DNA of 64,000 bases from a bacterium (GTDB taxonomy: Bacteria; Chloroflexota; Dormibacteria; Aeolococcales; Bog-877), in assembly GCA_021827985.1 (NCBI GenBank), contig JAKATL010000007.1:13764-77763 (forward strand), written 5' to 3'. Below the pieces are notes generated by a model. The model was not told where the DNA came from. It saw only the letters and a list, made by a program, of their open reading frames with translations, and made no database searches. Of the stretch, positions 6,041 to 61,554 are shown piece after piece (the first letter of the stretch is position 1; each line of letters starts with the position of its first letter). A program made the translations under genes and the position numbers.

Positions 6041-6622
6041 TCAGCCGTCTGAGGGCTGGGGCGACTGGCTCGAGTCACCGCCCGAGCTGTTCTGGTCGGG
6101 GCTGCTCCCAGAGCCTGCCGGTGTCGCCGTGGCCTCGGGAGTCTGGTGCGACTCCGGCGTCTGCTGAGCCTCCGGGGTCTGCCGGGCGTCGGGAGTATCC
6201 GTGGGCTCCGGTGTCCGGCTCGGGTCGGGGGTCTCCGCCGAGGTCGGGGAGGGGCCGGTCAGGGTGCCCAGCTGCGGGGGGCTGGACTCGCTCAAGTGGG
6301 CGGCCAGTACCGAGTCATTGCTGGCGCGCACCGACAGGGAGTAGGTGGCGCCATTGGGTGCCTGGACCACGACGTCGTAGACCGCAACGCCGTGTTCCGT
6401 GTCCGCCTCGGTCCGCAACACCTTGGCCGTCCCGGCACCGGGGTAGTGCTGGCTGACATAGGTCAGGGCTGCCTGGTCGGCGGCCGCAACCGGGCTGTTC
6501 GCCGCCACCAGGTTGACCCGGGTGGGGACGGGAGTGGCGCCGCCGCCCCGGGTGGTGGCCCAGACCCCTCCCACCACCGCCACCGCTCCGATCGCGATGC
6601 CTGCCGCTGCGGTTCTCATCAT
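6041..6622 (-). CDS. PepSY domain protein with Pro/Thr/Ser-rich C-terminal tail (secreted/membrane-anchored)
   Basis: A GGAGGAG RBS sits 5 nt upstream of the ATGATG start. A signal/TM segment (MMRTAAAGIAIGAVAVVGGVWA) precedes a PepSY-like core (ALTYVSQHYPGAGTAKVLRTEADTEHGVAVYDVVVQAPNGATYSLSV). The tail is low-complexity TPEPTDTPDARQTPEAQQTPE. Confidence 0.65.
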   Translation of the reverse strand: MMRTAAAGIAIGAVAVVGGVWATTRGGGATPVPTRVNLVAANSPVAAADQAALTYVSQHYPGAGTAKVLRTEADTEHGVAVYDVVVQAPNGATYSLSVRASNDSVLAAHLSESSPPQLGTLTGPSPTSAETPDPSRTPEPTDTPDARQTPEAQQTPESHQTPEATATPAGSGSSPDQNSSGGDSSQSPQPSDG

Positions 6623-6708
6623 CAGTCTCCTCCAAAAGGCGCTCCGTGCGCTTCTTCGAGGATTCACCCTGGGGATGAGCCGATCGTGGGAGGGGGATTA
6701 GATTCTCT

Positions 6709-7398
6709 TCAGTTCCCCTGACCGGGAACCGGGAGCAGCCGGTACCCGGCGCCCCGGACGGTGTGAATCAGCGGGGCCAGGCCCTCTCGATTCAGCTTCC
6801 GGCGCAGGTAGCTCACGTAGACATCGACCACATTGCTGCCCGGATCGAAGTCGTACTCCCACACCCGGTTCAGAATCTGGGTGCGCGACAGCACCTGGTG
6901 GGGGTGGCGCATGAAGAGCTCCAGGAGCGCCCACTCCCGGTGGGCCAGTTCGATGCGGCGGTCCGCCCGGAAGGCCATCTTGGAGAGCAGGTCCAGTCTC
7001 AGGTCGCCCACCTCCAGCTCGGTGGACACCGTCTGCTCCTTGGTCCGCAGCGCCGCCCGCACCCGCGCCAGCAGCTCGTCGAAGGAGAATGGCTTGGTCA
7101 CGTAGTCGGTGGCCCCAGCGTCCAGCCCTGCCACCTTGCTGGCGACGTCGTCGCGGGCGGTGAGGATGATCACTGGGAGCCCGGGCCTCTTGGCTCTCCA
7201 GAGGCGGAGAACCTCGAGCCCGTCTCTGTCGGGGAGACCGAGGTCGAGGAGCGCAAGATCCAGATCCTCGCCGCTGGCGTCCACCACGCCCAGGGCGGTG
7301 CGCGCATCCGGCGCTCGGGTTACCGCGTACCCCTCCGCCTGCAGGCCCTTGGCGAGAAAGGCCGCGATTCGAGCGTCGTCCTCCACCAACAGGATCAT
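6709..7398 (-). CDS. OmpR-family response regulator (REC + winged-helix)
   Basis: The REC domain shows MILLVEDDARIAAFL...LALLDLGLPDRDGLEVL...PVIILTARDD...GATDYVTKPFSFDELLARV. The C-terminal winged-helix (LSRTQILNRVWEYDFDPGSNVVDVYVSYLRRKL) is characteristic of OmpR. The start was trimmed to MILLVEDD and overlaps the kinase stop by 4 nt. Confidence 0.9.
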   Translation of the reverse strand: MILLVEDDARIAAFLAKGLQAEGYAVTRAPDARTALGVVDASGEDLDLALLDLGLPDRDGLEVLRLWRAKRPGLPVIILTARDDVASKVAGLDAGATDYVTKPFSFDELLARVRAALRTKEQTVSTELEVGDLRLDLLSKMAFRADRRIELAHREWALLELFMRHPHQVLSRTQILNRVWEYDFDPGSNVVDVYVSYLRRKLNREGLAPLIHTVRGAGYRLLPVPGQGN

Positions 7399-16133: not shown

Positions 16134-18143
16134 ATGACGGACGTCTCACCAACGCCCGGGTCCCCGCCCGGCGGCGACGCGGAGGCAACTCCACCCTCCG
16201 GAGTGGCGCGAATGATCGCGGATGCCCGCCTGGTTCCACCTGCGCCTGGCCAACGGCGACCGGCTCAGTTCGCCTCGGCCGCGGACTACCTGACCTACAT
16301 GGACGCGGCACGCCGGGACCCCGACGGCTACTGGGCCGGCGTGGCCCTGGAACTCGACTGGTTCAGCCCCTGGCAGACGCTCCGCGAGGGCACCCTCCCG
16401 GACTTCCGCTACTACGTTGGCGGCTGCGCCAACGTCAGCCACAACTGCCTGGACCGGCATGTGGCGGGGGGCCGAAGCAACAAGGCGGCGATCATCTGGG
16501 AGGGCGAGGATGGGGCGGAGCGGGTCCTCACCTACCAGATGCTCCTCGACGAGGTGAGCCGGTTCGCCAATGTCCTCGCAGATCTGGGTGTCCGGCGAGG
16601 CGATGTCGTGGCCATCTACATGTCGAACATCCCCGAGGTGTTCGCGGCGGTGCACGCCTGCTACCGGCTGGGCGCCGTCTACACCGTCATCTTCGCCGGC
16701 TTCAGCGCCGAAGCGGTGGGCCAGCGGCTTCGCGACTGCCGGCCCAAGGTCGTGGTGGTGGCCGACGGCAGCCAGCGGCGCGGGCGGGTGCTGCCCCTGA
16801 AGGCCACACTCGACGACGCTCTGGGCAAGGCGGCGGACTTCGTCGAGCATGTTGTCGTCGTGCGGCACACCGGCGCGGAGGTGGCGATGCACCCCGACCG
16901 CGACCGGTGGTACCACGAGCTGATGTCCGAGGCTGCGCCCACCCGGGTCCCGGAGGCCATGGAGGCCAACGAGCCTGGCTTCATCATCTACACGAGCGGC
17001 ACCGAGGCCCGCCCCAAGGGCGTGGTCCACTCCGGGTTGGGGTTCCTGGTCGGTACCTACGCCAACGTCAAGTGGTCGCTGGACCTGCGCGACGACGACG
17101 TCTACTGGTGCACGGCCGACGTGGGCTGGCTCACCTTCCCGATCTTCGCCCTGGTCGGCGGCCTGGCCCACGGGGCCACCCTGGTGGTGTACGAGGGGTC
17201 GCTGGACTTCCCCGGTCCGGATCGCTTCTACGACATTGTCGCCCGCCACCGGGTCAATAAGGTCTTCACCGCCCCCACCGCTCTGCGCATGCTGCGCCGC
17301 TTCGGCACCGAGGCCCTGCGGGGCCACGACCTCAGCCGCCTGGAACTGATCTCCCTGGTTGGCGAGCCCCTGGACCCCGAGACCTGGTACTGGGTCCGAG
17401 ACAACGTCGGCGGCGGGTCGGTCTGCATCAACAACACCTACGGTCAGACCGAGACCGCCACCGCTTGGACGTCTTCGGTGGTCGGGGTCACGGCAGGCAA
17501 GCCTGGGTCGTGCGGCCAGCCACTGCCCGGGTACGCCAGCCGTGTGCTGGACGCCGAGGGCCACGAGGTGCCACCCGGTCAGCCGGGATATCTCGTCATC
17601 ACCGAGCCGTTCCCCTCGTTGATGCGCACCGTCTGGGGCGACCACAATCGCTACCTCAGCACCTATTTCAGCCGCTTCCCCGGCACCTACTTCACCGCTG
17701 ACACCTGCGTGGTCGACCGCGATGGGCACTACTGGGTCATCGGCCGGGTGGATGACGTCATCAACGTGGCCGGTCACCGTCTCTCCACGATGGAGATGGA
17801 AGCGGCCTTGCTCAACCACCCCCTGGTTTCCGAGGCGGCTGTCATCGGCGTCGACGACCCGCTGAAGGGACTCCTGCCCGTGGCGTTCGTCGTCCTTCGC
17901 GGCGGAGCGGAGAACCGTTCTGACATGGAGTCAGAACTCAGCGAGCAGATTGTGGTTGCCATAGGCGGCATGGCCCGACCGGGCCGGGTCTACGTGGTCC
18001 CAGCCCTGCCCAAGACCCGCAGCGGCAAGATCATGCGGCGTCTGCTGCGCGAGATTCTCTCCACCGGCGAGGCCCGCGGGGACACCTCGGCGCTGGAGAA
18101 CGCGGACTCGATCAAGGTGCTTCTGGAACTGGTGCGGACGTGA
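16134..18143 (+). CDS. acs: acetyl-CoA synthetase (AMP-forming acetate-CoA ligase)
   Basis: Full-length ANL-superfamily enzyme with an Acs-specific N-terminus (YLTYMDAARRDPDGYWAGVALELDWFSPW). The AMP-binding motif is YTSGTEARPKGVVHS. Other conserved blocks are YWCTADVGWLTF, TYGQTETA and the C-terminal PKTRSGKIMRRLLR. Confidence 0.9.
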   Translation: MTDVSPTPGSPPGGDAEATPPSGVARMIADARLVPPAPGQRRPAQFASAADYLTYMDAARRDPDGYWAGVALELDWFSPWQTLREGTLPDFRYYVGGCANVSHNCLDRHVAGGRSNKAAIIWEGEDGAERVLTYQMLLDEVSRFANVLADLGVRRGDVVAIYMSNIPEVFAAVHACYRLGAVYTVIFAGFSAEAVGQRLRDCRPKVVVVADGSQRRGRVLPLKATLDDALGKAADFVEHVVVVRHTGAEVAMHPDRDRWYHELMSEAAPTRVPEAMEANEPGFIIYTSGTEARPKGVVHSGLGFLVGTYANVKWSLDLRDDDVYWCTADVGWLTFPIFALVGGLAHGATLVVYEGSLDFPGPDRFYDIVARHRVNKVFTAPTALRMLRRFGTEALRGHDLSRLELISLVGEPLDPETWYWVRDNVGGGSVCINNTYGQTETATAWTSSVVGVTAGKPGSCGQPLPGYASRVLDAEGHEVPPGQPGYLVITEPFPSLMRTVWGDHNRYLSTYFSRFPGTYFTADTCVVDRDGHYWVIGRVDDVINVAGHRLSTMEMEAALLNHPLVSEAAVIGVDDPLKGLLPVAFVVLRGGAENRSDMESELSEQIVVAIGGMARPGRVYVVPALPKTRSGKIMRRLLREILSTGEARGDTSALENADSIKVLLELVRT

Positions 18144-18339
18144 CCGCCGTTCTCCCCCCATACCGGCGCCGGAAGTGCTTCCGGTGGACCCGGCCCGCTT
18201 GGGGAGCCCGGCCAGCCCGGGGTCCGTCGCGGTGCTCTAGTCCTGTGACGCCCAAGTTCGACGTCTTGCGCCTCACGACCCGGCAAGCGGTGCGCGCCGG
18301 ACAAGGCCTCGACCCAGCAGACGAGGCCGCAGGACCAAC

Positions 18340-18855
18340 ATGGGCAGGCGCGTTGATCCTCTAGACGATCTTCCCAGACCTCCTAACCGCCTCGCTCGGG
18401 CCATCAACCGCCTGAGCGCCCCTAACAGCGCCCCGCCACTGGTGCTACGTGCGCACCGGTGGCTCTATGAACGCACCCGTGGTCGCGTCGGGCACGGCAT
18501 GATCGGCGCCCCTGCCCTGCTCCTGTACACGTGCGGGCGGCGTAGTGGTTTCCGGCGCTGCTCGGCGCTGGTCTATGGGCGGGACGGCGGGCGGATCGTG
18601 CTGGCTGCCTCCAACAATGGACTCGACCGCGCGCCTTCCTGGTTGCACAACATCCGGAACCACCCCGAGGTGGAGTTACGAGTCGGCCGACACCAGCTGT
18701 GGGGCAGGGCGACGGTGGTCGAGCCCTCCCATCCGGAATACGCCCACCTGTGGGAGGTCATGAACCGCAGCAATCACCGCCGCTACGATGCCTACCAGGC
18801 CAAGACCTCCAGGCCCATTCCCCTGGTGGTCGTCACCGCCAGCCAGTCTCGATAG
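18340..18855 (+). CDS. deazaflavin (F420)-dependent nitroreductase-family protein (Ddn/DUF385-like)
   Basis: RAHRWLYERTRGRVGHGMIGAPALLLYTCGRRSGFRR...ASNNGLDRAPSWLHNIRNHPEVELRVGRHQLWGRATVVEPSHPEYAHLWEVMNR fits the Ddn/PNPOx-like split-barrel family pattern. Confidence 0.8.
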   Translation: MGRRVDPLDDLPRPPNRLARAINRLSAPNSAPPLVLRAHRWLYERTRGRVGHGMIGAPALLLYTCGRRSGFRRCSALVYGRDGGRIVLAASNNGLDRAPSWLHNIRNHPEVELRVGRHQLWGRATVVEPSHPEYAHLWEVMNRSNHRRYDAYQAKTSRPIPLVVVTASQSR

Positions 18856-19269
18856 GCCCGGCGTTTGCGGCAGCGGGGGCGCTCCTGCCCGGAGGCGGTC
18901 CCGCGGTGGATTCGGCGGCGCCGCCGGGGCGCCGGCGGATGTCCGGTTCCGCCCATGATCCTGGACCCGGTCCCTGCCGCCGGGGACCGTGTCCTTGGTG
19001 ACCGGACAGGATCGCTGAACTCCTGAGGCAGGTCCGATCGCCGGGCTCCAAGAGGAGCCAGTGCCGCCCCTTGACACCCACGACCCTCAGCCCGTACCTT
19101 GACCAAATGAAGCCGACGCCCGCGCCAATGCCCGGCCCCATGGCCCCGCTAGGTGCCAGCATTCCTGGAGGGGCGGTCAGCTAGAGTTCACGCGTACCGT
19201 GGCGAAGTAGCACCGGCCCCTTCCGGGTCCGGTGCTTTTTTGTTGCCGCTGTGGGCCCACGACCCAGAG

Positions 19270-22200
19270 ATGTTGAAGTCGCAGCCGTCCCCCCGGAGCC
19301 CGGGGCCGCCCGCCGCCACGCCTCCCGACTGGGGCGCTGATCCGGGCCGTGCCAGCTGCGGCGTGGGGTTCGTGGCCACCTCGGACGGATCGCCGTCGCG
19401 CCGGATCGTGGACCTGGGGCTGCTGGCGCTGGCGCGCCTCGGCCACCGGGGGGCGGTTGGGGCCGACGGGGCGACCGGGGACGGAGCCGGCGTGATGCTC
19501 GACACCCCTTGGCGCCTCCTCCGTCGCGAGGCGGGGGAGGCGGGGGTGCGCCTCCCTCCGCCTGATGCCGGGGCGGTGGCGGTGGTGTTCCTGCCCCGGC
19601 GGGGCGGAGACCGGGCGGCGGTGCGCGCGGCGCTGGAGCGTGCCAGCCGGAACGAGGGCATGGAGCCGGTCTGGTGGCGCCAGGTGCCCTGCCGCCCGGC
19701 CGTGGCGGGTCCGATCGCCAGGGCGGGCCGCCCCGACGTCTGGCAGCTCGTGGTCGACACCGGCGGCGGCGAGAGCGGGCTCGAGGCCGGCCTCTTCCGG
19801 CTGCGCAAGCGGGCCGAGGCCCGGGTCCGAGGGATCCATTTGGAGCATGCCCAGAGCCGTGCCCAGTTCTCGATCGCCAGCCTCTCGGGGCGGACCCTCG
19901 TGTACAAGGGTCAGCTCACCGCAGCTCAGCTGCCGCGCTTCTACCCGGACCTGCGCGACCCGGAACTGGAGAGCCGGATGGTGATCTTCCACCAGCGCTT
20001 CAGCACCAACACCGAGCCCGACTGGAAGCTGGCCCAGCCCTTCCGCTTCCTGGCGCACAACGGCGAGATCAACACCGTCCGGGGCAACCGCAACTGGATG
20101 CGGGCCCGGGCGGGCAGCTGGCGACAGGGGGTCTGCGGGCTGCGGCCCGCCGAGCTGCTGCCCATCCTGGAGCCAGGAGCCAGTGACTCTGCGGACCTCG
20201 ACTGTGCGGTCGAGCTGCTCCTGCGCAGCGGACGGCCGCTGCCTCAGGCCCTGCTCATGCTCATCCCCGAGGCCTGGGAGAACTCCCCCGAAACTCCGGC
20301 GGCGCTGCGCGACTTCTACGCCTACCACGCCAACCTCCTGGAGCCCTGGGACGGCCCGGCCGCCCTGGCGTTCAGCGACGGCCGGGTGGTGGGGTCCGCC
20401 CTCGACCGCAATGGCCTGAGGCCCCTGCGCTTCGCCGTCAGCCGGGGCGGTCTGATCGTGCTCGCCTCCGAGGCCGGGGTGGTGGACATTCCCCCGGCCG
20501 ACACCGCGGAGCTGGGCCGGCTGCAGCCCGGCGAGATGCTGGTCCTGGACCTCGAACGGGGCGCACTGCTCCGGGACGCCGAGCTCAAGCGCGAGGTGGC
20601 ATCGCGCGCCCCCTGGGGGCGTTGGGAGCGGGAGCGGGTGGTGATCGCTCCCGACGAGCGCGGGAAGGACGGCACCGCTGAGCTGCCGGTCCCCACCCTG
20701 GGCGATCTCCTCCCCCAGCACGTCCACTTCGGGTACACCCAGGAGCAGCTGCAGGAGGTCCTGGCGCCGGCGGCGGCGTCCGGGCACGAATCCGTGGCCT
20801 CCATGGGCAACGACGCCGCCCCGGCGGCGCTGTCCAAGCGACCCCGTCTCCTCTTCGACTTCTTCCTGCAGGGTTTCGCCCAGGTGACTAACCCCCCCTT
20901 GGACCACATTCGGGAGCGGCGGGTCATGTCCCTGCGCGCCACCTTGGGGCCGGGCGGCGACCTGCTGGCCCAAGATCCGGGGGTGGCCCGTAGAGTCGAG
21001 CTGCGCAGCCCGGTGCTCGGGGATGCGGAGCTCCGCTGGTTGTGTGGGCGGCGGTCCCCGCTCAGCTCCCGCACGCTGAGCCTGGGATTCGCCACCGACC
21101 CCGGGGACCTGGAGGCCGCGCTCCATGATTTGGGCCGGGCCGCCGACGCCGCCGTGAGGGACGGAGTCCAGTTGCTGGTACTCAGTGACCGCCAGCTGGG
21201 CCCGGAGGAGGCGGCGGTCCCCAGCCTGCTGGCCCTCGGCTACGTCCACCACCACCTGGTGCGGCGCGGACGGCGCACCAGGCTCAGCCTGGTGGTGGAG
21301 TCGGGGGAGCCGGCGAGCACCCACGACCTGGCGTGCCTGGTCGGGCATGGCGCTGAGGCCGTCAACCCCTACCTGGCGCTGGCCACCGTCTCCGCCCTGG
21401 CCAGCTCGGGAGAGCTCGGCCCCCGAGCCTCGCGCCGGGAGGCGCGGGCGCGGTACCGGGCCGCGCTGGAGGAGGGGCTGCTCAAGGTGATGTCGAAGAT
21501 GGGCATCTCCACCCTGGCCAGCTACTGTGGCGCCCAGGTCTTCGAGATCGTCGGTCTGGGGCCGGAGGTGGCCGCTCTCTGCTTTCCGGGGACCCCCTCC
21601 CGAGTGGGTGGCATGGGCTTCCAACAGATCGGCTCAACCGCCTTAGAGCGCCGCCGGCAGGCTCTGGAGGCGAAGGAGCTCGACCTCGGCGGAGACCACC
21701 GCTGGCGGGAGGGGGCGGAGGTTCACGGCTGGAGTCCGGGCGCGGTGGCCAACCTCCAGCAGGCGGTCCGGGACGGTCTGGAAGGACGCTTCGAAAACTT
21801 CCGCCGCTGGGCGGACGGGGAGGCGAGCGCACCCTTCGTCCTGCGTCACCTGATGGAGCCGGTGCTCGGGCCTGCGGTGCCTCTGGAGGAGGTGGAGCCG
21901 GCCACCGAGATCGTGCGCCGGTTTGCCACCGGGGCGATGTCCCTGGGATCGCTGGGTCCTGAGGCCCACCTGACCCTGGCTCTGGCGATGAACCGGCTGG
22001 GGGCCAAGAGCAACACCGGCGAGGGCGGCGAGGACCCCGCACGCGCCCTCCTCCGCGCCGACGGCTGGTCGGGCCGCAGCGCCATCAAACAGGTCGCCTC
22101 GGCCCGCTTCGGGGTCACCATCGGCTATCTGGTGAGCGCGGATGACCTTCAGATCAAGATCGCCCAGGGCGCCAAGCCCGGAGAGGGCGGACAGCTGCCG

Positions 22201-50357: not shown

Positions 50358-50738
50358 GTGCGGGGCGCGCCGCCCCTCAATCCAGGTGCCCACTTGTCCC
50401 AGGTCCAAGGCCATCCGCGTCGCTGGCTGATCCTCGCCGTGGTCACCGTGGTGGCCTTCATCGGCAACGTCCACGGCACCATCGTGGTGGTCGGGCTGCC
50501 CCGGATCGTCCAGGGGCTGCACACCACCATCACCACCGGCCTCTGGACCCTGACCGGCTACATCATCACCAGTACCGTCTTCCTGCTGCCGGCGGGGCGG
50601 TGATCGGACGTCGTGGGCCGGAAGCGGATCTTCCTGGTCGGTGTGGGGCTGTTCGGCCTGGGCACGGTCCTCTGCGGGTTCGCTCCGTCCGGGGGAGCCC
50701 TGGTGGGTTGGCGCCTGCTGCAGGGGGTAGGGAACTAG
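50358..50738 (+). pseudogene. 5' fragment (~125 aa) of a DHA2-type MFS efflux transporter, frameshifted near 50603 and truncated at the junction with the serine-recombinase element
   Basis: Frame 1 reads RRWLILAVVTVVAFIGNVHGTIVVVGLPRIVQGLHTTITTGLWTLTGYIITSTVFLLPAGR then stops. The family-typical continuation SDVVGRKRIFLVGVGLFGLGTVLCGFAPSGGALVGWRLLQGVG is in the +1 frame (50603-50735). Homology ends abruptly at 50738, where the sequence turns AT-rich. Confidence 0.6.
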
Positions 50739-52582
50739 TCCCCGAGAACATCCCGCAAGAGCCCGTACGTATGTGTTAGTCTGCAGTTGTGAACCTGACT
50801 GAGTGGGCCCGCCGCCAAGGGATCCACCCCCACACCGCGTACCGATGGTTTGAGAGCGGCACCCTGCCGGTGCCGGCGGAGCGGGTGGGGCCGCGCACCA
50901 TCCTGGTGAACGTCGGCGCGGCCAGCGCGCTCCCGGCAGCCGGCCTGGGCCTCTATGCGCGAGTCTCGACCCGTGGGACGCAATCGAGCGGACCCCTGGC
51001 TAGATCCTCGGCCGTGCCCGCCGTCTTCAATTGCTGATTGGGGCAGAGCCAGGACCACCTGGACCTTGCCCCCACCTGCGTCGATGATAACGCGGCGGAC
51101 AAGCAGGCGTACAACTTGGCGCCGTCCGTCGAAGTCAAGTTGGCCGATCCCCTCAGAGACCCGCGCCGTGAAGGCCTCCAGGGATTGCAGCACGGCCGTC
51201 CAGTAGTCGCGGCCGCTGCGCCGGTCCGCCTGTGCCGCAAGGTCAGCTTCCAGACGCCCTAGGTGGTCCTTGAGCTCGGCGAGGCGCTGGCGCAGGTCTG
51301 TCTGGTCGAGCTCACCGTACTGGTAGAGGTCGACCAGCCGCTTCTGCTGGCTCCGCAGCCTGGCCCGGCGCCGCTCCGCCTCCCGTCGTTGCGCAGAATC
51401 CGTGCTGTCGGCCCCCAAGGTATCGATGCGGCGCTGGTACTCCCGCATGAGCGTCCCGGGGTCCTCACGAGCCTCCCGGACTGCGTCCCAGACCGCCTCC
51501 TCAAGACCCTCGGCTCTGACCGCTGGCGTCGGGTAGCGGCAGGCGCGACGATCACCGACGTTGAGCGGGTCAGCGGCACTGCACCGGTAAAGACGTCGCC
51601 CGTGGCTGACTGCCCCGGACATGGCAGCACCGCAGCTGGGGCAACGAACCAGACCGCCCGACAACAGGTAGCTGTGCCGCTTGTTGTTCCTCGGCGAGAA
51701 GCGGAAGTTCTCGGCAAGCTGCTGCCGGGCCCGTTTGAAGGTGGCCTCGTCGATGATCACAGGAACCCTGATAGCGACCCAGTTCTCCGTCGGCTGCACC
51801 TGGCGGACGGTCTTCGGCCGGTTCGATGGAGATGACCCGCCGGCTGATTCTGCCTTCACATAGGCGTTCCGCGCGTACAAGAACCGGCCTGCGTACCCTT
51901 CCTGCCGGAGCATGCGCCCGACCGTCGAGGCTCGCCAGTGGTCACCTCCCGCCGGTGCTGGCAGACCTCGCTCAGTGAGTACTCGGGCGATCTGCCGACA
52001 GGACTGGCGGTCCTCGACCAGCAAGCGGAACATCTCCCGCACCACATCGGCCCGGTCATCATCGATGGTCAGAGTCGCCCGCCTTGATCCGGACCGCGCG
52101 ACGTACCTGAAGCCGTAGGGAACGAAGCCCCCCATCAGGGCTCCCTCCCGCGCCCGAAAGAGCTTGCCTCGGCGCATACGATCTCGGATCACCTTGCCCT
52201 CGAAGTCGGCGAAGTCTCCCAGGATGTTCTCGATGAGCTCCCCTTGCGGGCTCGCGTCCGAAGGGTGCTGCACGAACTCCAAACGTGCTCGGCGCCTGAG
52301 CTCCTTAAGGAGGAGGGCCTGATTGCAGCGGTCCCGCGACAGCCGACCTATCTCGTGGATAACGATCACGTCGACGTCGCCCCGGGCGACTGCGTCGCGT
52401 AGGCGGTCGAGCGCGGGGCGGGCGAGATCGTACCCTGATCGGGCCTCGTCGACGAACTCGGTTGGAGTGTCGTAGCCTTTGCGCTGAGCATAGGTGCGCA
52501 GGGCGTCCAGCTGGCTCTCGACGGTCTCCTCGCGCTCCTGCCTCTCAGAGCTAACTCGGGCGTATAGGGCGACTCGTGTCAT
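50735..52582 (-). mobile_element. large serine recombinase (site-specific integrase/resolvase family) of an integrated element
   Basis: The N-terminal resolvase catalytic domain is MTRVALYARVSSERQ...SQLDALRTYA...DVIVIHEIGRLSRD. A recombinase domain, a zinc ribbon (CPSCGAAMSGAVSHGRRLYRC) and a coiled-coil (LRSQQKRLVDLYQYGELDQTDLRQRLAELKDHLGRLEADL) follow. An AGGGGGGA RBS precedes the ATG. The last ~130 codons are low-complexity and may be read-through. The gene's 3' end abuts the truncated MFS gene. Confidence 0.85.
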
Positions 52583-52915: not shown

Positions 52916-53830
52916 ATGCCCAGAAAGCTGAGCGGCGAGGACCTGCATGGCCTTCTGGCGGCTGTCTACGGGCCGCCGCCCTGGGACCTCACGGCTGAGG
53001 GAGTGGCCGCGAAGCTCAGCGCCCTCCGCCAACCCCTGGTCAGCGGCGAGGGTCTGTCGGCGGACATCAAAGAACGGGAGAGGAAGCGGCGGGCGCTGGC
53101 CAAGCCCCCGGCCGTCCGCCGGCCAGCTGAGGACGAGCTAGCCCACGAATGGCTGTCTATACATCGAGAGGCGGCAGCGCAGAAAGCCTTTCGGACGCGC
53201 CTCATCTACCTCGCGCGGTCAGCCGTTCCGGTAGCCGAGGCAAGTGCCGCAGTCGACTTGGCCAGTGCGCCTGGACCCGGGTGGCTGCGGACAGCGCCAG
53301 CCCCGGACGCACCCAGGGGCGGAAGCGCCCCTATCGACCGAGCGGTCGCCCGGCTGATCGAGCGGCACAGACTCCCGCCGACCCGGGCGGCCGCTCGGCG
53401 GCTCAGCCGGCACCTGCTGACCGGCAACCCCGACTGGCTCATAGGCTGGGACCTGAGCATGGCGCTGGTTCGAACCCCCGGCGAGTCTGTGGAGCCCGGG
53501 TACGACTCCCTGACGGTGACGGTGGTCGGGCTCGACGCCTTCGTCACGCGTGAAGACTGGGCGGAGATCTGGGAGCGGGTCGTCGAGCCTCGCCAGACCC
53601 TGTGGCTGGCGGTGCGAGGCCAACCTTCCCCGCGGGGTCCACGAGGAGTGCAGATTGCAGCGCTCGAGGCGACTATGCCACTGTACCGTGCGATTGTCCT
53701 GGATGGCTTGTCGCTACCCCAGGCACGGCAAGCGCTGCAGGAGAAGAGGGGGCGATCCACAGGGATCTCCCCCTCAACCGACTACCGAGGGGTCCGCGCG
53801 CTCCGGCGGCTACTCGAACCCGGCCCGTAG
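52916..53830 (+). CDS. hypothetical protein (304 aa), divergent from the serine recombinase
   Basis: Protein-like composition with no motif I can assign. The start is the internal ATG MPRKLSG; the upstream part of the ORF is Ala/Pro-rich non-protein-like sequence. Possibly an element-encoded regulator or recombination directionality factor. Confidence 0.45.
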   Translation: MPRKLSGEDLHGLLAAVYGPPPWDLTAEGVAAKLSALRQPLVSGEGLSADIKERERKRRALAKPPAVRRPAEDELAHEWLSIHREAAAQKAFRTRLIYLARSAVPVAEASAAVDLASAPGPGWLRTAPAPDAPRGGSAPIDRAVARLIERHRLPPTRAAARRLSRHLLTGNPDWLIGWDLSMALVRTPGESVEPGYDSLTVTVVGLDAFVTREDWAEIWERVVEPRQTLWLAVRGQPSPRGPRGVQIAALEATMPLYRAIVLDGLSLPQARQALQEKRGRSTGISPSTDYRGVRALRRLLEPGP

Positions 53831-53876
53831 TCCCAGCCCTTCGCCCCGGTGATCATGCACCTATCCTGACAGGACC

Positions 53877-54953
53877 ATGGAAGACGATACCGGGGGACGC
53901 CGTCGCAGTTGGTGGGCCATCGTTGGCCCTCTGCCGTCCTCTGAACCTACGGGCTGGCTCACGACACCCCACGACCGTACCCGCGTGCTCGATCGGGAGT
54001 ACGAGGTCGGCCCACTGCGTCTTCGTCCCGGTGGGAAGCGCTTGGTCGAGTACTTGCGCCTGGACCCGCTGGCACTGGAGGGCATAAGGAGGTCCGAGTC
54101 GTGGCCCCTTCTCGTGGAGAGCTCCTGGGAAGATGGTCTGCCCAGGATCTTTGCGAGCGGCCCGGAGGAAGTTCGAGCGGCCAAGCCAACCTGGCCAGCC
54201 ATCGAGCGGCAAGGCAGTGAGGACTTGCACCGGCTCTGCGCGCTCCTTTCCTTGGCGTGGGGTGAGCCCTGGCAGGTCCGAACCTCACCCAAGCCTTCGG
54301 AGCACCTCGACGCCGAGGTGCCGGACTCATGGCCAGCTCCACCCAGATGGCACCAGGACGACGACTTCCCACCCTCGCACCAGGAGGGGCTGCCGGACTG
54401 GATCAGCACGGCCTGGGATCAGGTGGGGACGGACGACCACGTTGCTGCCGCTCTTACCGCCTGGCACCAGGGCCTGCTCCTGACTCCGCAGCACCCCTCG
54501 TTCGCGCACGTGGCCCTCGTAGGCGCGATCGAGGAGTTGAGTCACGCCTCACCATTCGCAGCTATCGTTGACAATGGTCTGCCGGTTCCGTGCCATACCT
54601 GCGACGCGCGACACGATGCCTCCCAGCGCTTCTGGCGGATGGTGAGGCAGGTAGCGGCCGGCGCGGAGGTTGCCGAGCTAAAGGAACTCAACCCTCTGGG
54701 GAAGCGTGGCGCGGCCGCGCATGGAGCGCGGCTCCCTGGCATCGAAACGACGTACGGCTCCGTGGTGCTCCTGGACTGGATACCCCCGAGCCCGGAGGGA
54801 GACCCTCCGAGATTCGAGTTCAATCCGGACGACCCAGCCCAGATCTTCGTCCTCAAAGTGGTGCCCGCCGTGCGTGGGATTGCCCGCCGCCTCCTTCTCA
54901 AGGCCCTCGGCGCACCTGCCAACTCGTTTACCCCGGGCCTCGGAGCGGCCTGA
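53877..54953 (+). CDS. hypothetical protein (358 aa)
   Basis: Protein-like ORF with an AGGACC RBS. It is preceded by the palindrome TCCTGACAGGA, the same motif found upstream of the RHH gene at 58043. No assignable domain. Confidence 0.5.
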   Translation: MEDDTGGRRRSWWAIVGPLPSSEPTGWLTTPHDRTRVLDREYEVGPLRLRPGGKRLVEYLRLDPLALEGIRRSESWPLLVESSWEDGLPRIFASGPEEVRAAKPTWPAIERQGSEDLHRLCALLSLAWGEPWQVRTSPKPSEHLDAEVPDSWPAPPRWHQDDDFPPSHQEGLPDWISTAWDQVGTDDHVAAALTAWHQGLLLTPQHPSFAHVALVGAIEELSHASPFAAIVDNGLPVPCHTCDARHDASQRFWRMVRQVAAGAEVAELKELNPLGKRGAAAHGARLPGIETTYGSVVLLDWIPPSPEGDPPRFEFNPDDPAQIFVLKVVPAVRGIARRLLLKALGAPANSFTPGLGAA

Positions 54954-54994
54954 AGAGGTCATCGTGGGACCGACCGGGTAGTCCACCCAGTCCA

Positions 54995-55130
54995 GCATTC
55001 GTCCACGAGTCCTCCCATTCGTCCAGCCACGAGTCCACGCCGTCCCTGTGCCGTTGCGGGACGACGTTAGGGACGACATCTGAGATCATCCGCAGGACGA
55101 CATACGTGACGACGCCTCCGACGACATGAC
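54995..55130. repeat. intergenic cluster of short direct repeats: 2x CATTCGTCCA..CGAGTCC and at least 5x GACGAC(AT)
   Basis: Seen directly: CATTCGTCCACGAGTCC / CATTCGTCCAGCCACGAGTCCACG, then GGGACGACgttagGGACGACATctgagatcatccgcagGACGACATacgtGACGACgcctccGACGACATgacg. It lies immediately upstream of the 55155 gene. Confidence 0.55.
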
Positions 55131-55154
55131 GTACTGTGGCGGTGCAAGATCATC

Positions 55155-56285
55155 ATGTCGCTTACCGAAACTATCGAAGCCGAACTGCTGCACACCCTGG
55201 AGGGGGGTGGGGAGCCCGGGGAGGTGATCGCTCGGTATTCGGGCTCCAAGGGTCCCCTGTACTCCGCGCTGGCTCGGGCGACCGCAAGGGGTTCGGTGGA
55301 GCTTGCCCGCATCCGGCAGCAGCTTGCCGAGGTCCGAGGCCATCTTGCCCAGGCACAGCGGGACGCCGCCACAGCGGAGTCGAGGGGCCACAAGGCTCAG
55401 GTCGTTGCGGCTGCCGCAGAGGCCCGAACCTCGGAGCTGGCCGAGGCAGTCGCCCACGCCGAACGGGTTCTGCGGCAGGCCGAGGCTCTCCGAGCGCAGG
55501 GTTGCGGTGACGAGACCCTGGCGGCCATCGGAAGGCTTATAGCCGCAGTTGCCGATGGGGACGGGATTCCGCCTGCAGAGGCCGTTACCCGCCTGCTGGA
55601 GGCCGGTGAACACCACGGCCGTCTGGTCGACTTCGAGGCTCAAGCCCTGGCTGTGGAGCGCCGCCTCCAGCGCGCTCAGTCCGAGCTAGCGCGGTTGACG
55701 CCTACGGTCGCAGCCTTGAGGGACGAGCGAGAGGTCATCAAAGCGGGGTTGGCCGCAATCGCCGCCGACGGGACCAGCCAGCTGGCCAGGGCGCAGCAAG
55801 TGGCGGTCACCGCGCTGCAGGAGGCCCAGCGAGCGGCGCAGGGCGCTCTGCAGCAGGCTGGGATGCGGGCTCAGTCCCAAGCCCAGGCGGCCGAGCAGGC
55901 AGCAGAGCGGAGCCTGGCTGGCTACCGACGCCTCACCCGGGAGGCCGCCCTCCTTGAACAGGACGTCACCTTCGCCCGGCTCCTCCGGGATCCGGACGCC
56001 CGCTACTGGCAGGTGGTCGCCCCGTCAAGTTGGCAAGTCGTTATTGCTCGACTGGCCGCCTGGGCCGGTGCCGTGGTCCCCGACCTCCCGGTGCCGATTC
56101 CCGAGCCCGTCAAGGGGGTCGTGGCCGGGAGCGTCAGCTACCCGGCGGTCTACGGACCGCTCCGGGTCCCGCTTCTTGGGCTCATCGCCTGGCTGAGCGA
56201 GGGGATCAAATTGGTGCCCAGTGCGGCCCTCCGGGCGCACCTCGACCGGGTGGCCGACAGCAACTCGCGGGTGGAGTCCGAATAA
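55155..56285 (+). CDS. hypothetical coiled-coil protein (376 aa) with hydrophobic C-terminal region
   Basis: Long Ala/Gln/Arg/Glu-rich heptad-like stretches (about residues 40-290) are followed by a hydrophobic C-terminus (AVVPDLPVPIPEPVKGVVAGSVSYPAVYGPLRVPLLGLIAWL). No catalytic motif. Confidence 0.5.
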   Translation: MSLTETIEAELLHTLEGGGEPGEVIARYSGSKGPLYSALARATARGSVELARIRQQLAEVRGHLAQAQRDAATAESRGHKAQVVAAAAEARTSELAEAVAHAERVLRQAEALRAQGCGDETLAAIGRLIAAVADGDGIPPAEAVTRLLEAGEHHGRLVDFEAQALAVERRLQRAQSELARLTPTVAALRDEREVIKAGLAAIAADGTSQLARAQQVAVTALQEAQRAAQGALQQAGMRAQSQAQAAEQAAERSLAGYRRLTREAALLEQDVTFARLLRDPDARYWQVVAPSSWQVVIARLAAWAGAVVPDLPVPIPEPVKGVVAGSVSYPAVYGPLRVPLLGLIAWLSEGIKLVPSAALRAHLDRVADSNSRVESE

Positions 56286-56360
56286 CTGGCTGAGCGCGAG
56301 CTACCTCGGGAGGTGGAGATGGCTGATGGCGGCCCAGCGCGGGCCGCCATCAGCCCACCA

Positions 56361-58086: not shown

Positions 58087-58476
58087 ATGGGCGTGATCAA
58101 GAAGACCGTGGTCCTCGATGACCGCATCGAGAGGTTCGTACGCCGGACTCAGGCGCTGATGCTGGAGGCCGAGCCCCCCATCGAAGCGACGTACTCCTCT
58201 GCCCTGAACTTCATGCTCCTGGCGGCCATCCATGAGGCCTCCCGTCCGGGCGGCCTGTCAGCCGAGACCCGGGAAGTCATCTGGGACTTCGCGCGCGACA
58301 ACGACACCCTGGAGGAGCTGAACCTGCACGAGCGGATGGGAGCGGTCCGTGCCGCCCTACTGCTCGGCGAAGGCGTTGAACACCCCCACGCCAGGCAGCC
58401 TCCAGCCAATCCATCTCCTGAGGCGCCGGATGGCGAGTCCGACACGTCGGCTCCCCACCCGACGGCGGCCGAATGA
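58087..58476 (+). CDS. ribbon-helix-helix (CopG/Arc/MetJ-like) domain protein with acidic/Pro-rich tail
   Basis: The N-terminal beta-strand-helix-helix pattern is KKTVVLDDRIERFVRRTQALMLEAEPPIEATYSSALNFMLLAAI. A GAGGAGG RBS precedes it, and upstream lies the palindrome GTCCTATCCTACAGGAC. Confidence 0.55.
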   Translation: MGVIKKTVVLDDRIERFVRRTQALMLEAEPPIEATYSSALNFMLLAAIHEASRPGGLSAETREVIWDFARDNDTLEELNLHERMGAVRAALLLGEGVEHPHARQPPANPSPEAPDGESDTSAPHPTAAE

Positions 58477-58636
58477 ACCCGGCTGGCATCCTGCAGGGGG
58501 TCGCTCCTCTCTGCAGCCACCTCGGCTGGGGGGCAGGGGCACCGGGGCGGCCCTGTGCCCGGGCCGACGAGGCGCTGCCGGGAGCGGCTTCCGTGTGCAT
58601 GCAGGCCGGGCTCGATGGGCTGCAGATGGCGCGGCC

Positions 58637-59272
58637 ATGCTAGCCGCTGTTCGGCGAGCCTGCGGGTGCATGGTCCTCTTCTTGGCCGTGGGCGCGGCGT
58701 TGGGCGTGGCTATCGCCGCCTACCCGTACGTCGCCCCCCAGGTCCCCCGGGCCGCCTCAGCCGTTTCTCATGGGGTGAGCGAACTTCGCTCCCTGGTGTA
58801 TGGGCTCCAGCGGGTAGGGCCGCCAGCCCACCTTCCGGCGACCCCCGCACCGCTACCATCAACGGCGGCGACACCGGCCAAACCGACGTGGACCCGGCCC
58901 AGCTCGGATAGCTGCCAGTGGGGGATCTCCCTTCTGGCCCAGGACCACGCCCTCGACGTGAGGGCAGCCCGAGAGTACCCCGCCTGGCAGACCTGGTACG
59001 ACACTACTGCCGGTTGGTGGGCAGGGGCCGAAGTGGATCTGGAGGGTCTGTGCGGTCAGGCGGCTGCGCCCAGCCGTGCCAGCTGCCAGGCCGACCTGTC
59101 CCACTTCAGCGAGGCGGAGCAGAACCACGAGGCCGCGGCGGCTGGCACGGAACCGAGTTCGATGCCCGGTACGACGACCCAGGATCGGACATGGAACTTG
59201 GAGTGGGCCGCAGACTACCGGCGGCTCTTCGGCATCTTCGCCATCACCGGCTGCGGTGGCGTGGGCGGATGA
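58637..59272 (+). CDS. hypothetical membrane-anchored/secreted protein
   Basis: An N-terminal TM/signal anchor (CMVLFLAVGAALGVAIAAYPYVA) is followed by a Cys-containing extracellular region. No assignable domain. Confidence 0.4.
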   Translation: MLAAVRRACGCMVLFLAVGAALGVAIAAYPYVAPQVPRAASAVSHGVSELRSLVYGLQRVGPPAHLPATPAPLPSTAATPAKPTWTRPSSDSCQWGISLLAQDHALDVRAAREYPAWQTWYDTTAGWWAGAEVDLEGLCGQAAAPSRASCQADLSHFSEAEQNHEAAAAGTEPSSMPGTTTQDRTWNLEWAADYRRLFGIFAITGCGGVGG

Positions 59273-59714: not shown

Positions 59715-60086
59715 ATGGCCCGATCTGTCCGCTTGCTGAAGGACGGCCAAGCCCCGCACCGGGAGCCTCAGTCGCGGGCGCGCCATCGTGCAGAGCACGT
59801 GACGGTCGGGGTGATGGTGACCATCGAGGAGCGGGACGCTCTCGCGGCCCGAGCCGCCGCTGCCGGCATCTCGATGGGCGCCCTGCTTCGAGGGGATCCG
59901 GCTGCCCGGGACGCCGAGCTGCAGATCCTCCGGGAGCGAAGTCGTCGCGCAGGGCTGGCCGAGGGGCGGCGGGAGCGTGAGGCCGACGTGGCGGCGCTGC
60001 GAGAGAAGCTTGCCTCGATTGCATCCACGGGCGACGCTCGGGCCAACTCCGTGGCTGCAGCGTGGAGAGCCTTGCAGTGGAGATAG
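59715..60086 (+). CDS. MobC/RHH-like small DNA-binding protein (hypothetical)
   Basis: VTVGVMVTIEERDALAARAAAAGISMGALLRG resembles the MobC/ribbon-helix-helix pattern (strand, then helix ending in a basic residue). An Arg/Glu-rich helical tail follows. No relaxase lies downstream. Confidence 0.4.
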   Translation: MARSVRLLKDGQAPHREPQSRARHRAEHVTVGVMVTIEERDALAARAAAAGISMGALLRGDPAARDAELQILRERSRRAGLAEGRREREADVAALREKLASIASTGDARANSVAAAWRALQWR

Positions 60087-60344: not shown

Positions 60345-60974
60345 TCAAGTCCGGTGCAAGGCTTCCCAGCCCAATAGGCCACCAAAGCCCACCAGCCCTA
60401 TACCGGAAGCTACGTCGACCGCCCTGGCTGTCCGGGGTCCGATGCGCCGCCGAGTGAGGCTTCCCACGGCTGAGAGCAGGGAGAACCAGCCTAGGCTGCC
60501 GAGTCCGACACCCACCACCAACCCCGCCGCGTCGAGGGGCGTCCGGGCAGGGGCAGCAGCGGAGGCCGCCGTGAACAGCGCGGCCCAAGACAGAATCGTG
60601 AGCGGGTTCGATGCGGTTGCGATCAGGGCAGTGCGAACCGCCCGACCCAGATGCCTCACCTCCTCCTCTGTCTCCAAGCCCTGTCTCACTCGCGCGGCGG
60701 ACCACACCGTGCGAACGCCCAGGGCAATCAAGAAGGCGGCCCCAGCTACACCGAGGGAGACCTGAAGCCCGGGCAGGGCGCGGAGTGCGGAGGCCGCGCC
60801 GACGGCGCCGAGAGCCGCATACGTCATGTCGATCGTGGCCGCCCCAACCCCGATCGCCAGTCCGGCCACGAACCCGCTCCGAAGTGCGCTTCGGGCGCAC
60901 AGGAGCCAGATCGGACCCACCTGAGCGGCAACCAGGGCTCCGAACCCAAGGCCGCCCAGGAAGGCTGCCGCCAT
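60345..60974 (-). CDS. LysE/RhtB-family amino-acid exporter
   Basis: MAAAFLGGLGFGALVAAQVGPIWLL is the typical LysE N-terminus. The topology is six TM segments. Confidence 0.8.
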   Translation of the reverse strand: MAAAFLGGLGFGALVAAQVGPIWLLCARSALRSGFVAGLAIGVGAATIDMTYAALGAVGAASALRALPGLQVSLGVAGAAFLIALGVRTVWSAARVRQGLETEEEVRHLGRAVRTALIATASNPLTILSWAALFTAASAAAPARTPLDAAGLVVGVGLGSLGWFSLLSAVGSLTRRRIGPRTARAVDVASGIGLVGFGGLLGWEALHRT

Positions 60975-60976
60975 CG

Positions 60977-61162
60977 CTACCCCAGTGCCTCGATCGTCAG
61001 CGCGAGCCGCTTCGGAGAACCGAGCCTAGCATGGGCCGCCTTCTGCAGGTAGAGGGTCCCGACGACGGGGCTACCGGGGTGGTCCGGTGGCTGGCCCGTC
61101 TCGTCCTCGGCGAACCGGATGGTGTTCTTGGTCTCCCGCTCCAGGGTGAGGTGGATTTCCAT
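60977..61162 (-). CDS. small hypothetical protein (61 aa) in operon with LysE-family exporter
   Basis: MEIHLTLERETKNTIRFAEDETGQPPDHPGSPVVGTLYLQKAAHARLGSPKRLALTIEALG has protein-like composition. Its stop overlaps the LysE start. The longer listed ORF upstream is non-protein-like. Confidence 0.4.
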   Translation of the reverse strand: MEIHLTLERETKNTIRFAEDETGQPPDHPGSPVVGTLYLQKAAHARLGSPKRLALTIEALG

Positions 61163-61554
61163 GATGCCTCCCGAACTCGGCCAGGCAGGGTGGGGGCCCG
61201 TTTGCCCTCTCCGAAATGGGGGTCTGGCCGGACCCCGGTTCCGCTGTGTACAGTAGCCGCCATGACCATCTCCGGAAGGGCTCCCTTTCCAGTGCCCCCG
61301 GGCCATCATTGGGGCGACGGAGCCCAGACCAATAGCGCCAGCCTCCGGCAGCGCGGCAGAGCGCTGATGACCGGGTTCCCTGGGGCCGGCGTGGTGCGGG
61401 TGTGCTGGGTGGCTGTTGGCCGCAGATAGCCGGCCGATGGCAATCCGGCAGCGGCCCAGGGCACCGGCTGCGGAGGCCTTGAGGAGCACGGGAGCGGAGC
61501 CTTTGGCTCCCACTGGATCATCGCGACTTGAGAGCCGCATTTGCCGCCCGCCCG

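Follow-up and report, generated by a model that had tools for sequence, protein, structure and literature searches.

A candidate HEPN ribonuclease gene in a variable slot between backbone genes of an apparent large serine recombinase element

Among the described HEPN ribonucleases of bacterial immunity, RAZR (ring-activated zinc-finger RNase) joins a zinc-finger domain to a DUF4145/HEPN domain and acts as a single-gene abortive-infection system (PMC13017515). The HEPN domain is defined by an Rx4-6H motif that ends helix 3, before the loop to helix 4, by conservation of an acidic residue in the second helix and by an insert that separates this helix from the third; a polar N, D or H directly after the conserved R is typical though not obligatory, and some HEPN domains are non-catalytic (PMC3710099). 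Integrative elements with hotspots for defence cargo include the SCCmec-type islands moved by large serine recombinases (LSRs) (PMC11470126), with further examples in pipolins (PMC11551731) and in Pseudomonas genomic-island hotspots (PMC12629846). Here we analyze three consecutive open reading frames, ORF1, ORF2 and ORF3, in a 64-kb stretch of contig JAKATL010000007.1 with ~70% G+C, which we call the window. We put the probability at roughly 60% that they lie at the integrase-proximal end of an LSR-driven integrative element, with ORF1 and ORF3 belonging to the backbone and ORF2 being HEPN cargo. Contigs with related sequence that were used for comparison are numbered L001-L031.

The three genes are co-oriented and closely spaced, as the original prediction had it: ORF1 (52916-53830, + strand, 304 aa), ORF2 (53877-54953, + strand, 358 aa) and ORF3 (55155-56285, + strand, 376 aa) follow one another at gaps of 46 and 201 nt. 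All three are genuine genes on the evidence of their homologues and of their ratios of non-synonymous to synonymous substitution (dN/dS), which are 0.17-0.42 for each in pairwise comparisons with relatives and therefore indicate purifying selection. None of them matches a family in Pfam, NCBIfam, PHROG or PADLOC, barring coiled-coil noise for ORF3, and their description as uncharacterized at the sequence level is borne out. A ribosome-binding site of its own had been attributed to each gene; ORF1 has one (GGAGG, 12 nt before the start), ORF2 is preceded by a weak AGGA, and ORF3 lacks an obvious Shine-Dalgarno sequence.

The assignment of ORF2 starts from an AlphaFold2 model built on 29 sequences (predicted local distance difference test score 86.5, predicted template modelling score 0.87). 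The model has a beta-rich N-terminal domain, with strands within residues ~9-140, a helix at 106-128 and a linker, followed by a C-terminal domain of HEPN fold at residues ~176-343 (nt 54402-54905). This second domain comprises helices at 176-202 and 207-221, an insert at 225-271, a helix at 273-283, a hairpin at 300-314 and a helix at 320-343, and forms a four-helix up-down bundle of two alpha-hairpins. The predicted HEPN catalytic motif, R277-G-A-A-A-H282 (Rx4H; codons at 54705-54722, + strand), sits at the C-terminal end of helix 273-283, which is helix 3 of the bundle, ahead of the loop to the last long helix. R277, H282, E290 and G294 are invariant in 29/29 sequences of the ORF2 family. 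The acidic position in helix 2 is taken by E219, within helix 207-221, which is nearly invariant (at least 90% of the family), and the insert between helices 2 and 3 contains a CxxC pair in many members. Listed with the ORF2 model are Csm6 (9.5), 4nqf (8.7), AF0298 (8.3), the HepT toxin (7.6) and AbiV (7.3), and next in the list come Sacsin HEPN, SO_3166, AbiA, LsoA, Las1 and Csx1. Given the fold model and the invariant Rx4H, the C-terminal domain is probably a HEPN domain, and ORF2 most fittingly counts as a new sequence family of the well-known class of HEPN RNase immune/toxin effectors. The earlier statement that no catalytic motif could be recognized in any of the three proteins is thus wrong for ORF2, whereas its suggestion of an anti-phage or abortive-infection candidate is credible for this gene.

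The family is rare and goes unrecognized by current annotation libraries: outside its own cluster, ORF2 has 28 homologues, with identity as low as ~27% (29 clusters at 90% identity). One locus, in a Dormibacterota metagenome-assembled genome (MAG), was matched among 185,579 GTDB species genomes, and no match was found in phage, plasmid or IMG/VR collections. Homologues without ORF1 or ORF3 on the same contig occur in six contexts. On L005 the homologue has Abi_C and DUF4096 genes for neighbours, and the same contig carries Beta_protein, P4_cII and an AAA plus S8 pair farther along; on L017 it adjoins two unknown genes and lies a few kb downstream of an Abi_C gene and a type I hsdMSR operon. 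On L018/19 it comes right after a tyrosine integrase gene, with a DUF2510 gene downstream and, beyond that, a RES-Xre toxin-antitoxin pair; on L029 it adjoins an operon of DUF499, DUF1156-methyltransferase and SNF2 genes. The remaining two are a Candidatus Dormiibacterota MAG (L020) and a locus near an HNH gene (L027/28). An all-against-all comparison of ORFs within +/-5 kb at 8 loci found no neighbour conserved across the contexts, the sole shared pair being between L005 and L017. By this distribution ORF2 is an independent, single-gene entity, of which ORF1 and ORF3 are not partners. Kinship of ORF2 with the neighbouring Abi_C HEPN proteins was considered and rejected (hhalign probability 0.1%).

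The protein shared by L005 and L017 is unannotated and ~390-410 aa long, with 31% identity over 159 aa (E 2e-17). Its gene is found at 14402-15628 of L005, 3 kb from ORF2, and at 11344-12507 of L017, where it adjoins ORF2; it is absent from the other contexts.

HEPN enzymes generally act as homodimers, and ORF2 would likewise be a metal-independent RNase acting as a homodimer. Its N-terminal domain would keep the enzyme silent until it senses a trigger, most probably a component of a phage, whereupon cleavage of cellular or phage RNA would abort the infection. ORF2 could instead arrest growth as a toxin and thereby help the element to be retained. The main alternative to the abortive-infection reading takes up this second possibility: ORF2 would be an addiction- or toxin-type HEPN RNase that stabilizes the element by post-segregational killing or growth arrest, and not a phage defence. 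We consider this unlikely. No MNT-type or other conserved partner gene stands beside ORF2 in any context, and a free-standing toxin without an antitoxin would have to be controlled within the molecule, as in the single-protein Abi design. Several of the contexts are, moreover, classical defence neighbourhoods (restriction-modification, Abi_C, DUF499/DUF1156).

Several observations weigh against the reading of ORF2 as a HEPN nuclease in defence. The residue after R277 is G or S and not N, D or H, no sequence profile ties ORF2 to a named HEPN family, and a Foldseek search with ORF2 returned no match. Pfam, including the HEPN clan, DUF4145, Abi_2, Abi_C and AbiV, gave no match in the 29 members at E<=10, nor did ORF2 have a PDB sequence-profile match. 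Helical bundles can match promiscuously, and the association of ORF2 with defence is anecdotal, coming from seven contexts. The missing profile link and the empty Foldseek search, together with the existence of non-catalytic HEPN domains (PMC3710099), would suit a protein that is not a nuclease, namely a non-catalytic HEPN-like domain or a generic four-helix bundle that binds a ligand or protein and in which Rx4H is coincidental. We hold this explanation to be improbable.

The relation of ORF2 to its two neighbours was examined across the related contigs. ORF1, ORF2 and ORF3 are colinear in L015 (ORF2 84% identical), and in L016 and L031 ORF1 and ORF2 are adjacent before the contig ends (ORF2 81% identical in L031). 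The ORF1-ORF2 adjacency is kept only in these close relatives, at 75-87% identity. All three genes occur together only in L015, and they are uncoupled in L008-L013 and in the six ORF2-only contexts; among close relatives common descent suffices to explain their synteny. ORF1 and ORF3 without ORF2, on the other hand, are found in two lineages on six contigs. In both lineages, as seen in L008 and L011, the order is LSR (- strand), ORF1 homologue, MauJ-family gene, Mrr_cat/DUF8426 gene (Mrr-like) and ORF3 homologue. Identity to the window in the L011-L013 lineage is 66% for the LSR, ~76% for ORF1 and 85% for ORF3; in the L008-L010 lineage it is 56%, ~60% and 71%, respectively. ORF3 is accompanied by ORF1 and the recombinase in L008, L011 and L015. 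Since ORF1 and ORF3 keep other cargo in these lineages and ORF2 has no conserved neighbour elsewhere, the trio is a juxtaposition by descent. Gene order in these contigs shows ORF1 and ORF3 to be backbone, inherited with the recombinase, and ORF2 to be cargo in a variable slot. The proposal that all three genes are cargo therefore stands for ORF2 and fails for the other two, and the proposal that they form one functional module is not supported, ORF2 being distributed independently of ORF1 and ORF3.

The Mrr-like cargo protein of the sister elements is the PADLOC defence candidate PDC-S02 (E 1e-143, full length). ORF2 and the MauJ-family protein occupy the same slot at nearly the same length (358 vs 359 aa), and the reading of ORF2 as itself a diverged MauJ or Mrr protein was rejected, as BLASTP found no similarity. 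The MauJ-family protein (PF17419, 359 aa) is paired with PDC-S02 in two element lineages (L008 3473-5797; L011 3101-5423). In PADLOC, PDC-S02 stands as a candidate of one gene; that a MauJ partner is conserved suggests a possible two-gene system.

ORF3 has 7 homologues, down to 35-45% identity, and a layout of a conserved ~45-aa N-terminal domain, a ~225-aa coiled coil and a conserved ~105-aa C-terminal domain. In residues 46-270, A, R, L, Q and E are abundant and prolines are few, a composition that fits a coiled coil and agrees with the original prediction of a largely coiled-coil protein. The C-terminal domain is proline-rich and, as had also been claimed, hydrophobic, but a clear transmembrane helix is not predicted. 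The idea of a membrane protein was rejected: the top Kyte-Doolittle mean over 19 residues is 1.56, below threshold, and charges lie inside the hydrophobic stretches. Matches of ORF3 to TAL effectors (PDB profile, E ~3e-5), LmuB, SMC and JetC were judged to be compositional or coiled-coil noise because no single stretch passes the threshold and the scores are far below curated cut-offs.

The gap between ORF2 and ORF3 holds an iteron/operator region (54981-55137, + strand). It consists of five direct GTCCA copies (54981-55037), five GACGAC copies (55060-55125; mostly 12 nt apart, three of them as GGACGAC) and a conserved TACTGT at 55132-55137, ~20 nt before the ORF3 start codon. As GGAC is the reverse complement of GTCC, the GACGAC set is inverted relative to the GTCCA set. 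All three of the 12-nt-phased GACGAC pairs in the window fall in the ORF2-ORF3 gap, with 0 expected, and the repeat density noted here from the letters alone is real and non-random. Relatives have five or six direct GTCCA copies followed by zero to five GACGAC copies (some as GGACGAC), mostly in the 12-nt phase. All ORF3 loci (6/6), including L030 at 35-45% protein identity, have a single GTCCA cluster, which immediately precedes the ORF3 homologue; the cluster is found in 0/8 loci without ORF3, some of which have ORF1 homologues, and nowhere else in the window. Because the array tracks ORF3 whatever cargo lies to its left, it belongs to ORF3, and its interpretation as a regulatory region of the whole trio is not supported. 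The array is most likely the operator of ORF3 itself, or else a centromere-like or origin-like site. Its identity as a known RNA was rejected, an Rfam search at E<=1 having given only spurious miRNA matches elsewhere.

In L030 a second repeat set lies at 280-400, upstream of the GTCCA iterons. It contains GGTAAACCCGAGG three times, along with the variants GGTATACCCCGG and GGTGCACCCG, and has no counterpart in the window.

KfrA-type plasmid proteins have an N-terminal DNA-binding domain and a long coiled-coil tail, are autoregulatory and are linked to partition. ORF3 resembles them in its small N-terminal domain and long coiled coil, in the repeats in its own promoter region, and in the linkage of its relatives to a ParA-like ATPase gene, which lies downstream of the ORF3 homologue in L011, L014 and L030. 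It differs in its additional conserved C-terminal domain, and membership of the KfrA family was rejected, as nine members gave no KfrA_N (Pfam) match at E<=10 and matched coiled-coil families only. The KfrA-like design and the ParA-like linkage point to a maintenance or partition role for ORF3. In such a role the small conserved N-terminal domain would bind the GTCCA/GACGAC array before the gene, and ORF3 would autoregulate while acting in maintenance or partition of the element.

ORF1 starts at 52916 (MPRKLS), and this start is conserved in all homologues. A longer version from GTG 52670 (386 aa) was rejected, as every homologue starts at MPRKLS; where homologues are longer, the difference comes from 77 internal residues that the window copy has lost. 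Compared with the homologue P0185 (381 aa, 95-97% identical), the window ORF1 has a clean 77-aa in-frame deletion at about residue 60, with the tripeptide LAK at both breakpoints. The lost segment holds the most conserved motif of the family, ...TSxGLRARLALLPxNPHLExD...R..., and its loss would leave ORF1 crippled or altered in the window copy. Since the deletion allele is present at at least two insertion sites (the window and L001/L002), either the element is not obviously immobilized by it or the assemblies are mosaic. There are 6 close homologues, and a profile search of 1.84 billion cluster representatives gave 139 clusters, 45 of them below 1e-30; a scan of GTDB genomes with ORF1 gave nothing. 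The protein is all-helical, with small helix-turn-helix (HTH)- or winged-helix-like parts, and distant relatives are found near integrases, one beside a tyrosine integrase and an HTH_23 gene and another separated from an LSR by 2.5 kb that include Mom and ParB_N genes. From this architecture and context we infer an element-borne DNA-binding regulator. ORF1, which is transcribed divergently from the recombinase, would thus be a helical DNA-binding protein that probably regulates the element. A special conservation of the recombinase-ORF1 intergenic region was also considered; it dissolved in sensitive blastn searches, which found an ordinary 71-88% in all relatives.

The distributions described above bear on the possibility that the trio is one three-component defence or maintenance system, with ORF1 as DNA-binding sensor or regulator, ORF2 as effector and ORF3 as scaffold. 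Co-orientation and close spacing would be expected of such a system, and the colinearity in L015 and the ORF1-ORF2 adjacency in L016 and L031 are in line with it. However, the backbone pair does without ORF2 in two lineages, ORF2 does without the pair in six contexts, and the iterons track ORF3 only. Furthermore, in the window the most conserved motif of the ORF1 family is gone, yet ORF2 is intact and under purifying selection. The independent gene distributions largely refute this model, and we regard it as very unlikely.

The recombinase and the left end of the element support the reading of ORF1 and ORF3 as backbone genes with ORF2 as cargo. The LSR gene (50735-52582, - strand) has a probable start at 52582 (MTRVALYARVS), which is also the start in the L001 gene call. 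Its product has the resolvase catalytic, Recombinase and zinc beta-ribbon domains that define an LSR (Resolvase PF00239, 2.5e-27; Recombinase PF07508, 9.5e-17; Zn_ribbon_recom PF13408, 1.2e-10), confirming the serine integrase that had been placed upstream, and shares 56-78% identity with its counterparts in sister elements. From 50724 to the end of the window, near-identical copies exist on other contigs (L001-L004). An attL-like left junction lies at 50715-50740: the sequence becomes homologous to L001, L002 and L015 at 50724, and the junction is placed at about 50724-50737, where the core common to the copies is GGGGT[A/T]GGGAA[C/G]T[A/G]GTCCCCG. To the left of 50724, L001 and L002 run into sequence unrelated to the window, and L015 (87% identity) loses homology at the same point, its flank being an MmgE/PrpD gene. 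The left flanks of the window, of L001/L002 and of L015 thus differ beyond a shared junction, which places the recombinase at the margin of an element that has integrated at three sites or more. In the window the flank is a major facilitator superfamily (MFS; DHA2-like) transporter gene at ~50400-50737, of which only the N-terminus is present, cut at ...WRLLQGVG at the junction.

Some further details of this end were noted. The truncated MFS gene also has an internal stop (GR*SD). The polymorphic att core, which reads CTAG here and GTGG or CTGG in relatives, encompasses the LSR stop codon (TAG, 50735-50737); as the core lacks the stop in other insertions, the LSR reading frame extends into the flank there, to a length of 635 aa (L001) or 838 aa (L015). 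L001 and L002 (1-6848) carry the identical element and have 745 nt of left flank in common (6103-6848), beyond which they diverge completely, one continuing into hydantoinase genes and the other into a gene for a 1731-aa fn3/He_PIG protein. The divergence may stem from mobile DNA nested within other mobile DNA, from differences between strains or from chimeric assembly.

Large serine recombinases are common as phage integrases and phage accessory genes ('morons') often sit near the integrase, so that the LSR type and the integrase-proximal position of the genes might suggest part of a prophage with ORF1-ORF3 as phage regulatory or structural genes. This can be dismissed as a most improbable origin, since there is no homology to prophage proteins in PHROGs, no tblastn match in 50,697 phage genomes and no relative in IMG/VR, the relatives carry ParA-like and NikA-like genes typical of plasmid-like or mobilizable elements, and no capsid, terminase or tail genes are seen in ~13 kb.

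To the points raised against ORF2 must be added those that concern the element. The alternative left flanks come from metagenome assemblies and could be chimeric, and the right end of the element was not found: a search of the window for attR, as an inverted copy of the left-end sequence, and for long inverted repeats gave nothing convincing, and the element is therefore longer than 13.3 kb. Only two cargo states have been seen in the ORF1-ORF3 slot, and all close relatives (at least 75% identity) keep ORF2, which leaves room for a clade-specific functional link. The roles of ORF1 and ORF3, finally, are drawn from architecture and context alone.

Beyond ORF3 the element appears to have a second slot. 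A 61-aa backbone gene (60977-61162, - strand; 60977-61289 with its upstream region) has 77% nucleotide identity over this region to L008, L011 and L014. It is followed by cas3g in the window and by an MmeI-type restriction-modification gene in those three contigs, and the presence of one gene before different cargo implies at least two cargo slots in the element. In the sister elements the MmeI-type gene comes with a PLD-SNF2 helicase gene in that position. The type I-G cas3 gene starts at 61555 (+ strand) and runs past the window end at 64000; its product matches the full Cas3g model (PADLOC E 2e-263) and the Pfam families DEAD, Cas3-like_C_2 and Cas3_HD, so that the Cas3-like nuclease-helicase recognized earlier is a genuine Cas3g. 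In the identical contig L001, cas3g (17679-21077) is followed next by cas8g/csx17 (Cas8g, PADLOC E 3e-84), the gene order of a type I-G locus. Judged by gene order, the LSR element seems to carry the type I-G CRISPR-Cas locus as cargo in the second slot. With the LSR, this locus and the defence cargo of the sister elements, the placement of the trio in defence and mobile-element territory is well founded.

Other features lie between these two parts. The convergent protease gene reported downstream of ORF3 is present, with a Peptidase_S8 match (E 1.8e-6) and an assignment to the S8/S53 clan. Between the convergent ORF3 and peptidase genes sits a GC-rich, terminator-like hairpin (56321-56355, read from the sequence) with a perfect 15-bp stem and a 5-nt loop, GGCTGATGGCGGCCC-AGCGC-GGGCCGCCATCAGCC, which is a probable bidirectional terminator without a T-run. 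A simple terminator scan that requires a T-run did not call it, and scans for sigma-70 promoters and T-run terminators, which are uninformative at 68-70% GC, returned nothing. In the interior of the element are a 123-aa NikA-like gene (relaxosome accessory, E 1e-5; 59715-60086) and a LysE-type exporter gene (60345-60974). The NikA-like gene hints that the element can be mobilized; no relatives were found in plasmid collections. Several small ORFs at 58087-59272 had no matches.

Two novelties may be combined in this region. It is possible, though we advance it tentatively, that ORF2 founds an undescribed family of single-gene HEPN abortive-infection proteins with a new beta-rich sensor domain and that the scaffold is at the same time a new element family. 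That scaffold would run from the recombinase through ORF1, the first slot, the GTCCA iterons with ORF3 and the 61-aa gene to the second slot. The hosts appear to be uncultured high-GC soil bacteria, with relatives named Candidatus Dormibacterota. If this is true, the elements shuttle swappable immune cargo comprising HEPN, MauJ with PDC-S02, MmeI-type and type I-G CRISPR-Cas genes, and a little-studied lineage arranges its immunity genes as model organisms do, in fixed positions of an element driven by an integrase, where one cargo can be exchanged for another. Unknown defence genes could then be fished from metagenomes with two baits, the interval between ORF1 and ORF3 and the slot that follows the 61-aa gene.

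Compared with RAZR, whose N-terminal domain is a Cys4 zinc ribbon, the N-terminal domain of ORF2 is beta-rich and ~140-170 aa long; the ORF2 motif is Rx4H, against R146...H154 in RAZR; and the family has no match to DUF4145 even at the permissive threshold given above, its activity being a prediction. ORF2 has no sequence or profile similarity to AbiV, AbiD/AbiF/Abi_2, AbiJ/Abi_C, AbiU2 or the HEPN domains of Csm6/Csx1, and differs from the single-protein Abi HEPN families in its N-terminal domain and in the large insert between helices 2 and 3. It is about three times larger than the toxins of the HepT/MNT type II/VII toxin-antitoxin systems and has an extra domain, and it lacks the adjacent MNT nucleotidyltransferase of a HEPN-MNT pair. 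If confirmed, ORF2 would add to the single-protein HEPN RNase immune effectors a sequence family with a new presumed N-terminal sensor. The element itself appears to resemble the SCCmec-type islands, pipolins and Pseudomonas hotspots in being a recombinase-plus-backbone scaffold with unrelated defence genes swapped in its slots: across the window element and its sisters, the HEPN gene alternates with MauJ plus PDC-S02 in the first slot, as type I-G CRISPR-Cas does with the MmeI-type restriction-modification gene in the second. It appears unlike those elements in its backbone of the ORF1 family, ORF3 with the GTCCA iterons and the 61-aa gene, which seems unrelated to theirs and is unannotated. 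Current understanding is thereby extended and not overturned, the pattern being known and the backbone genes new.

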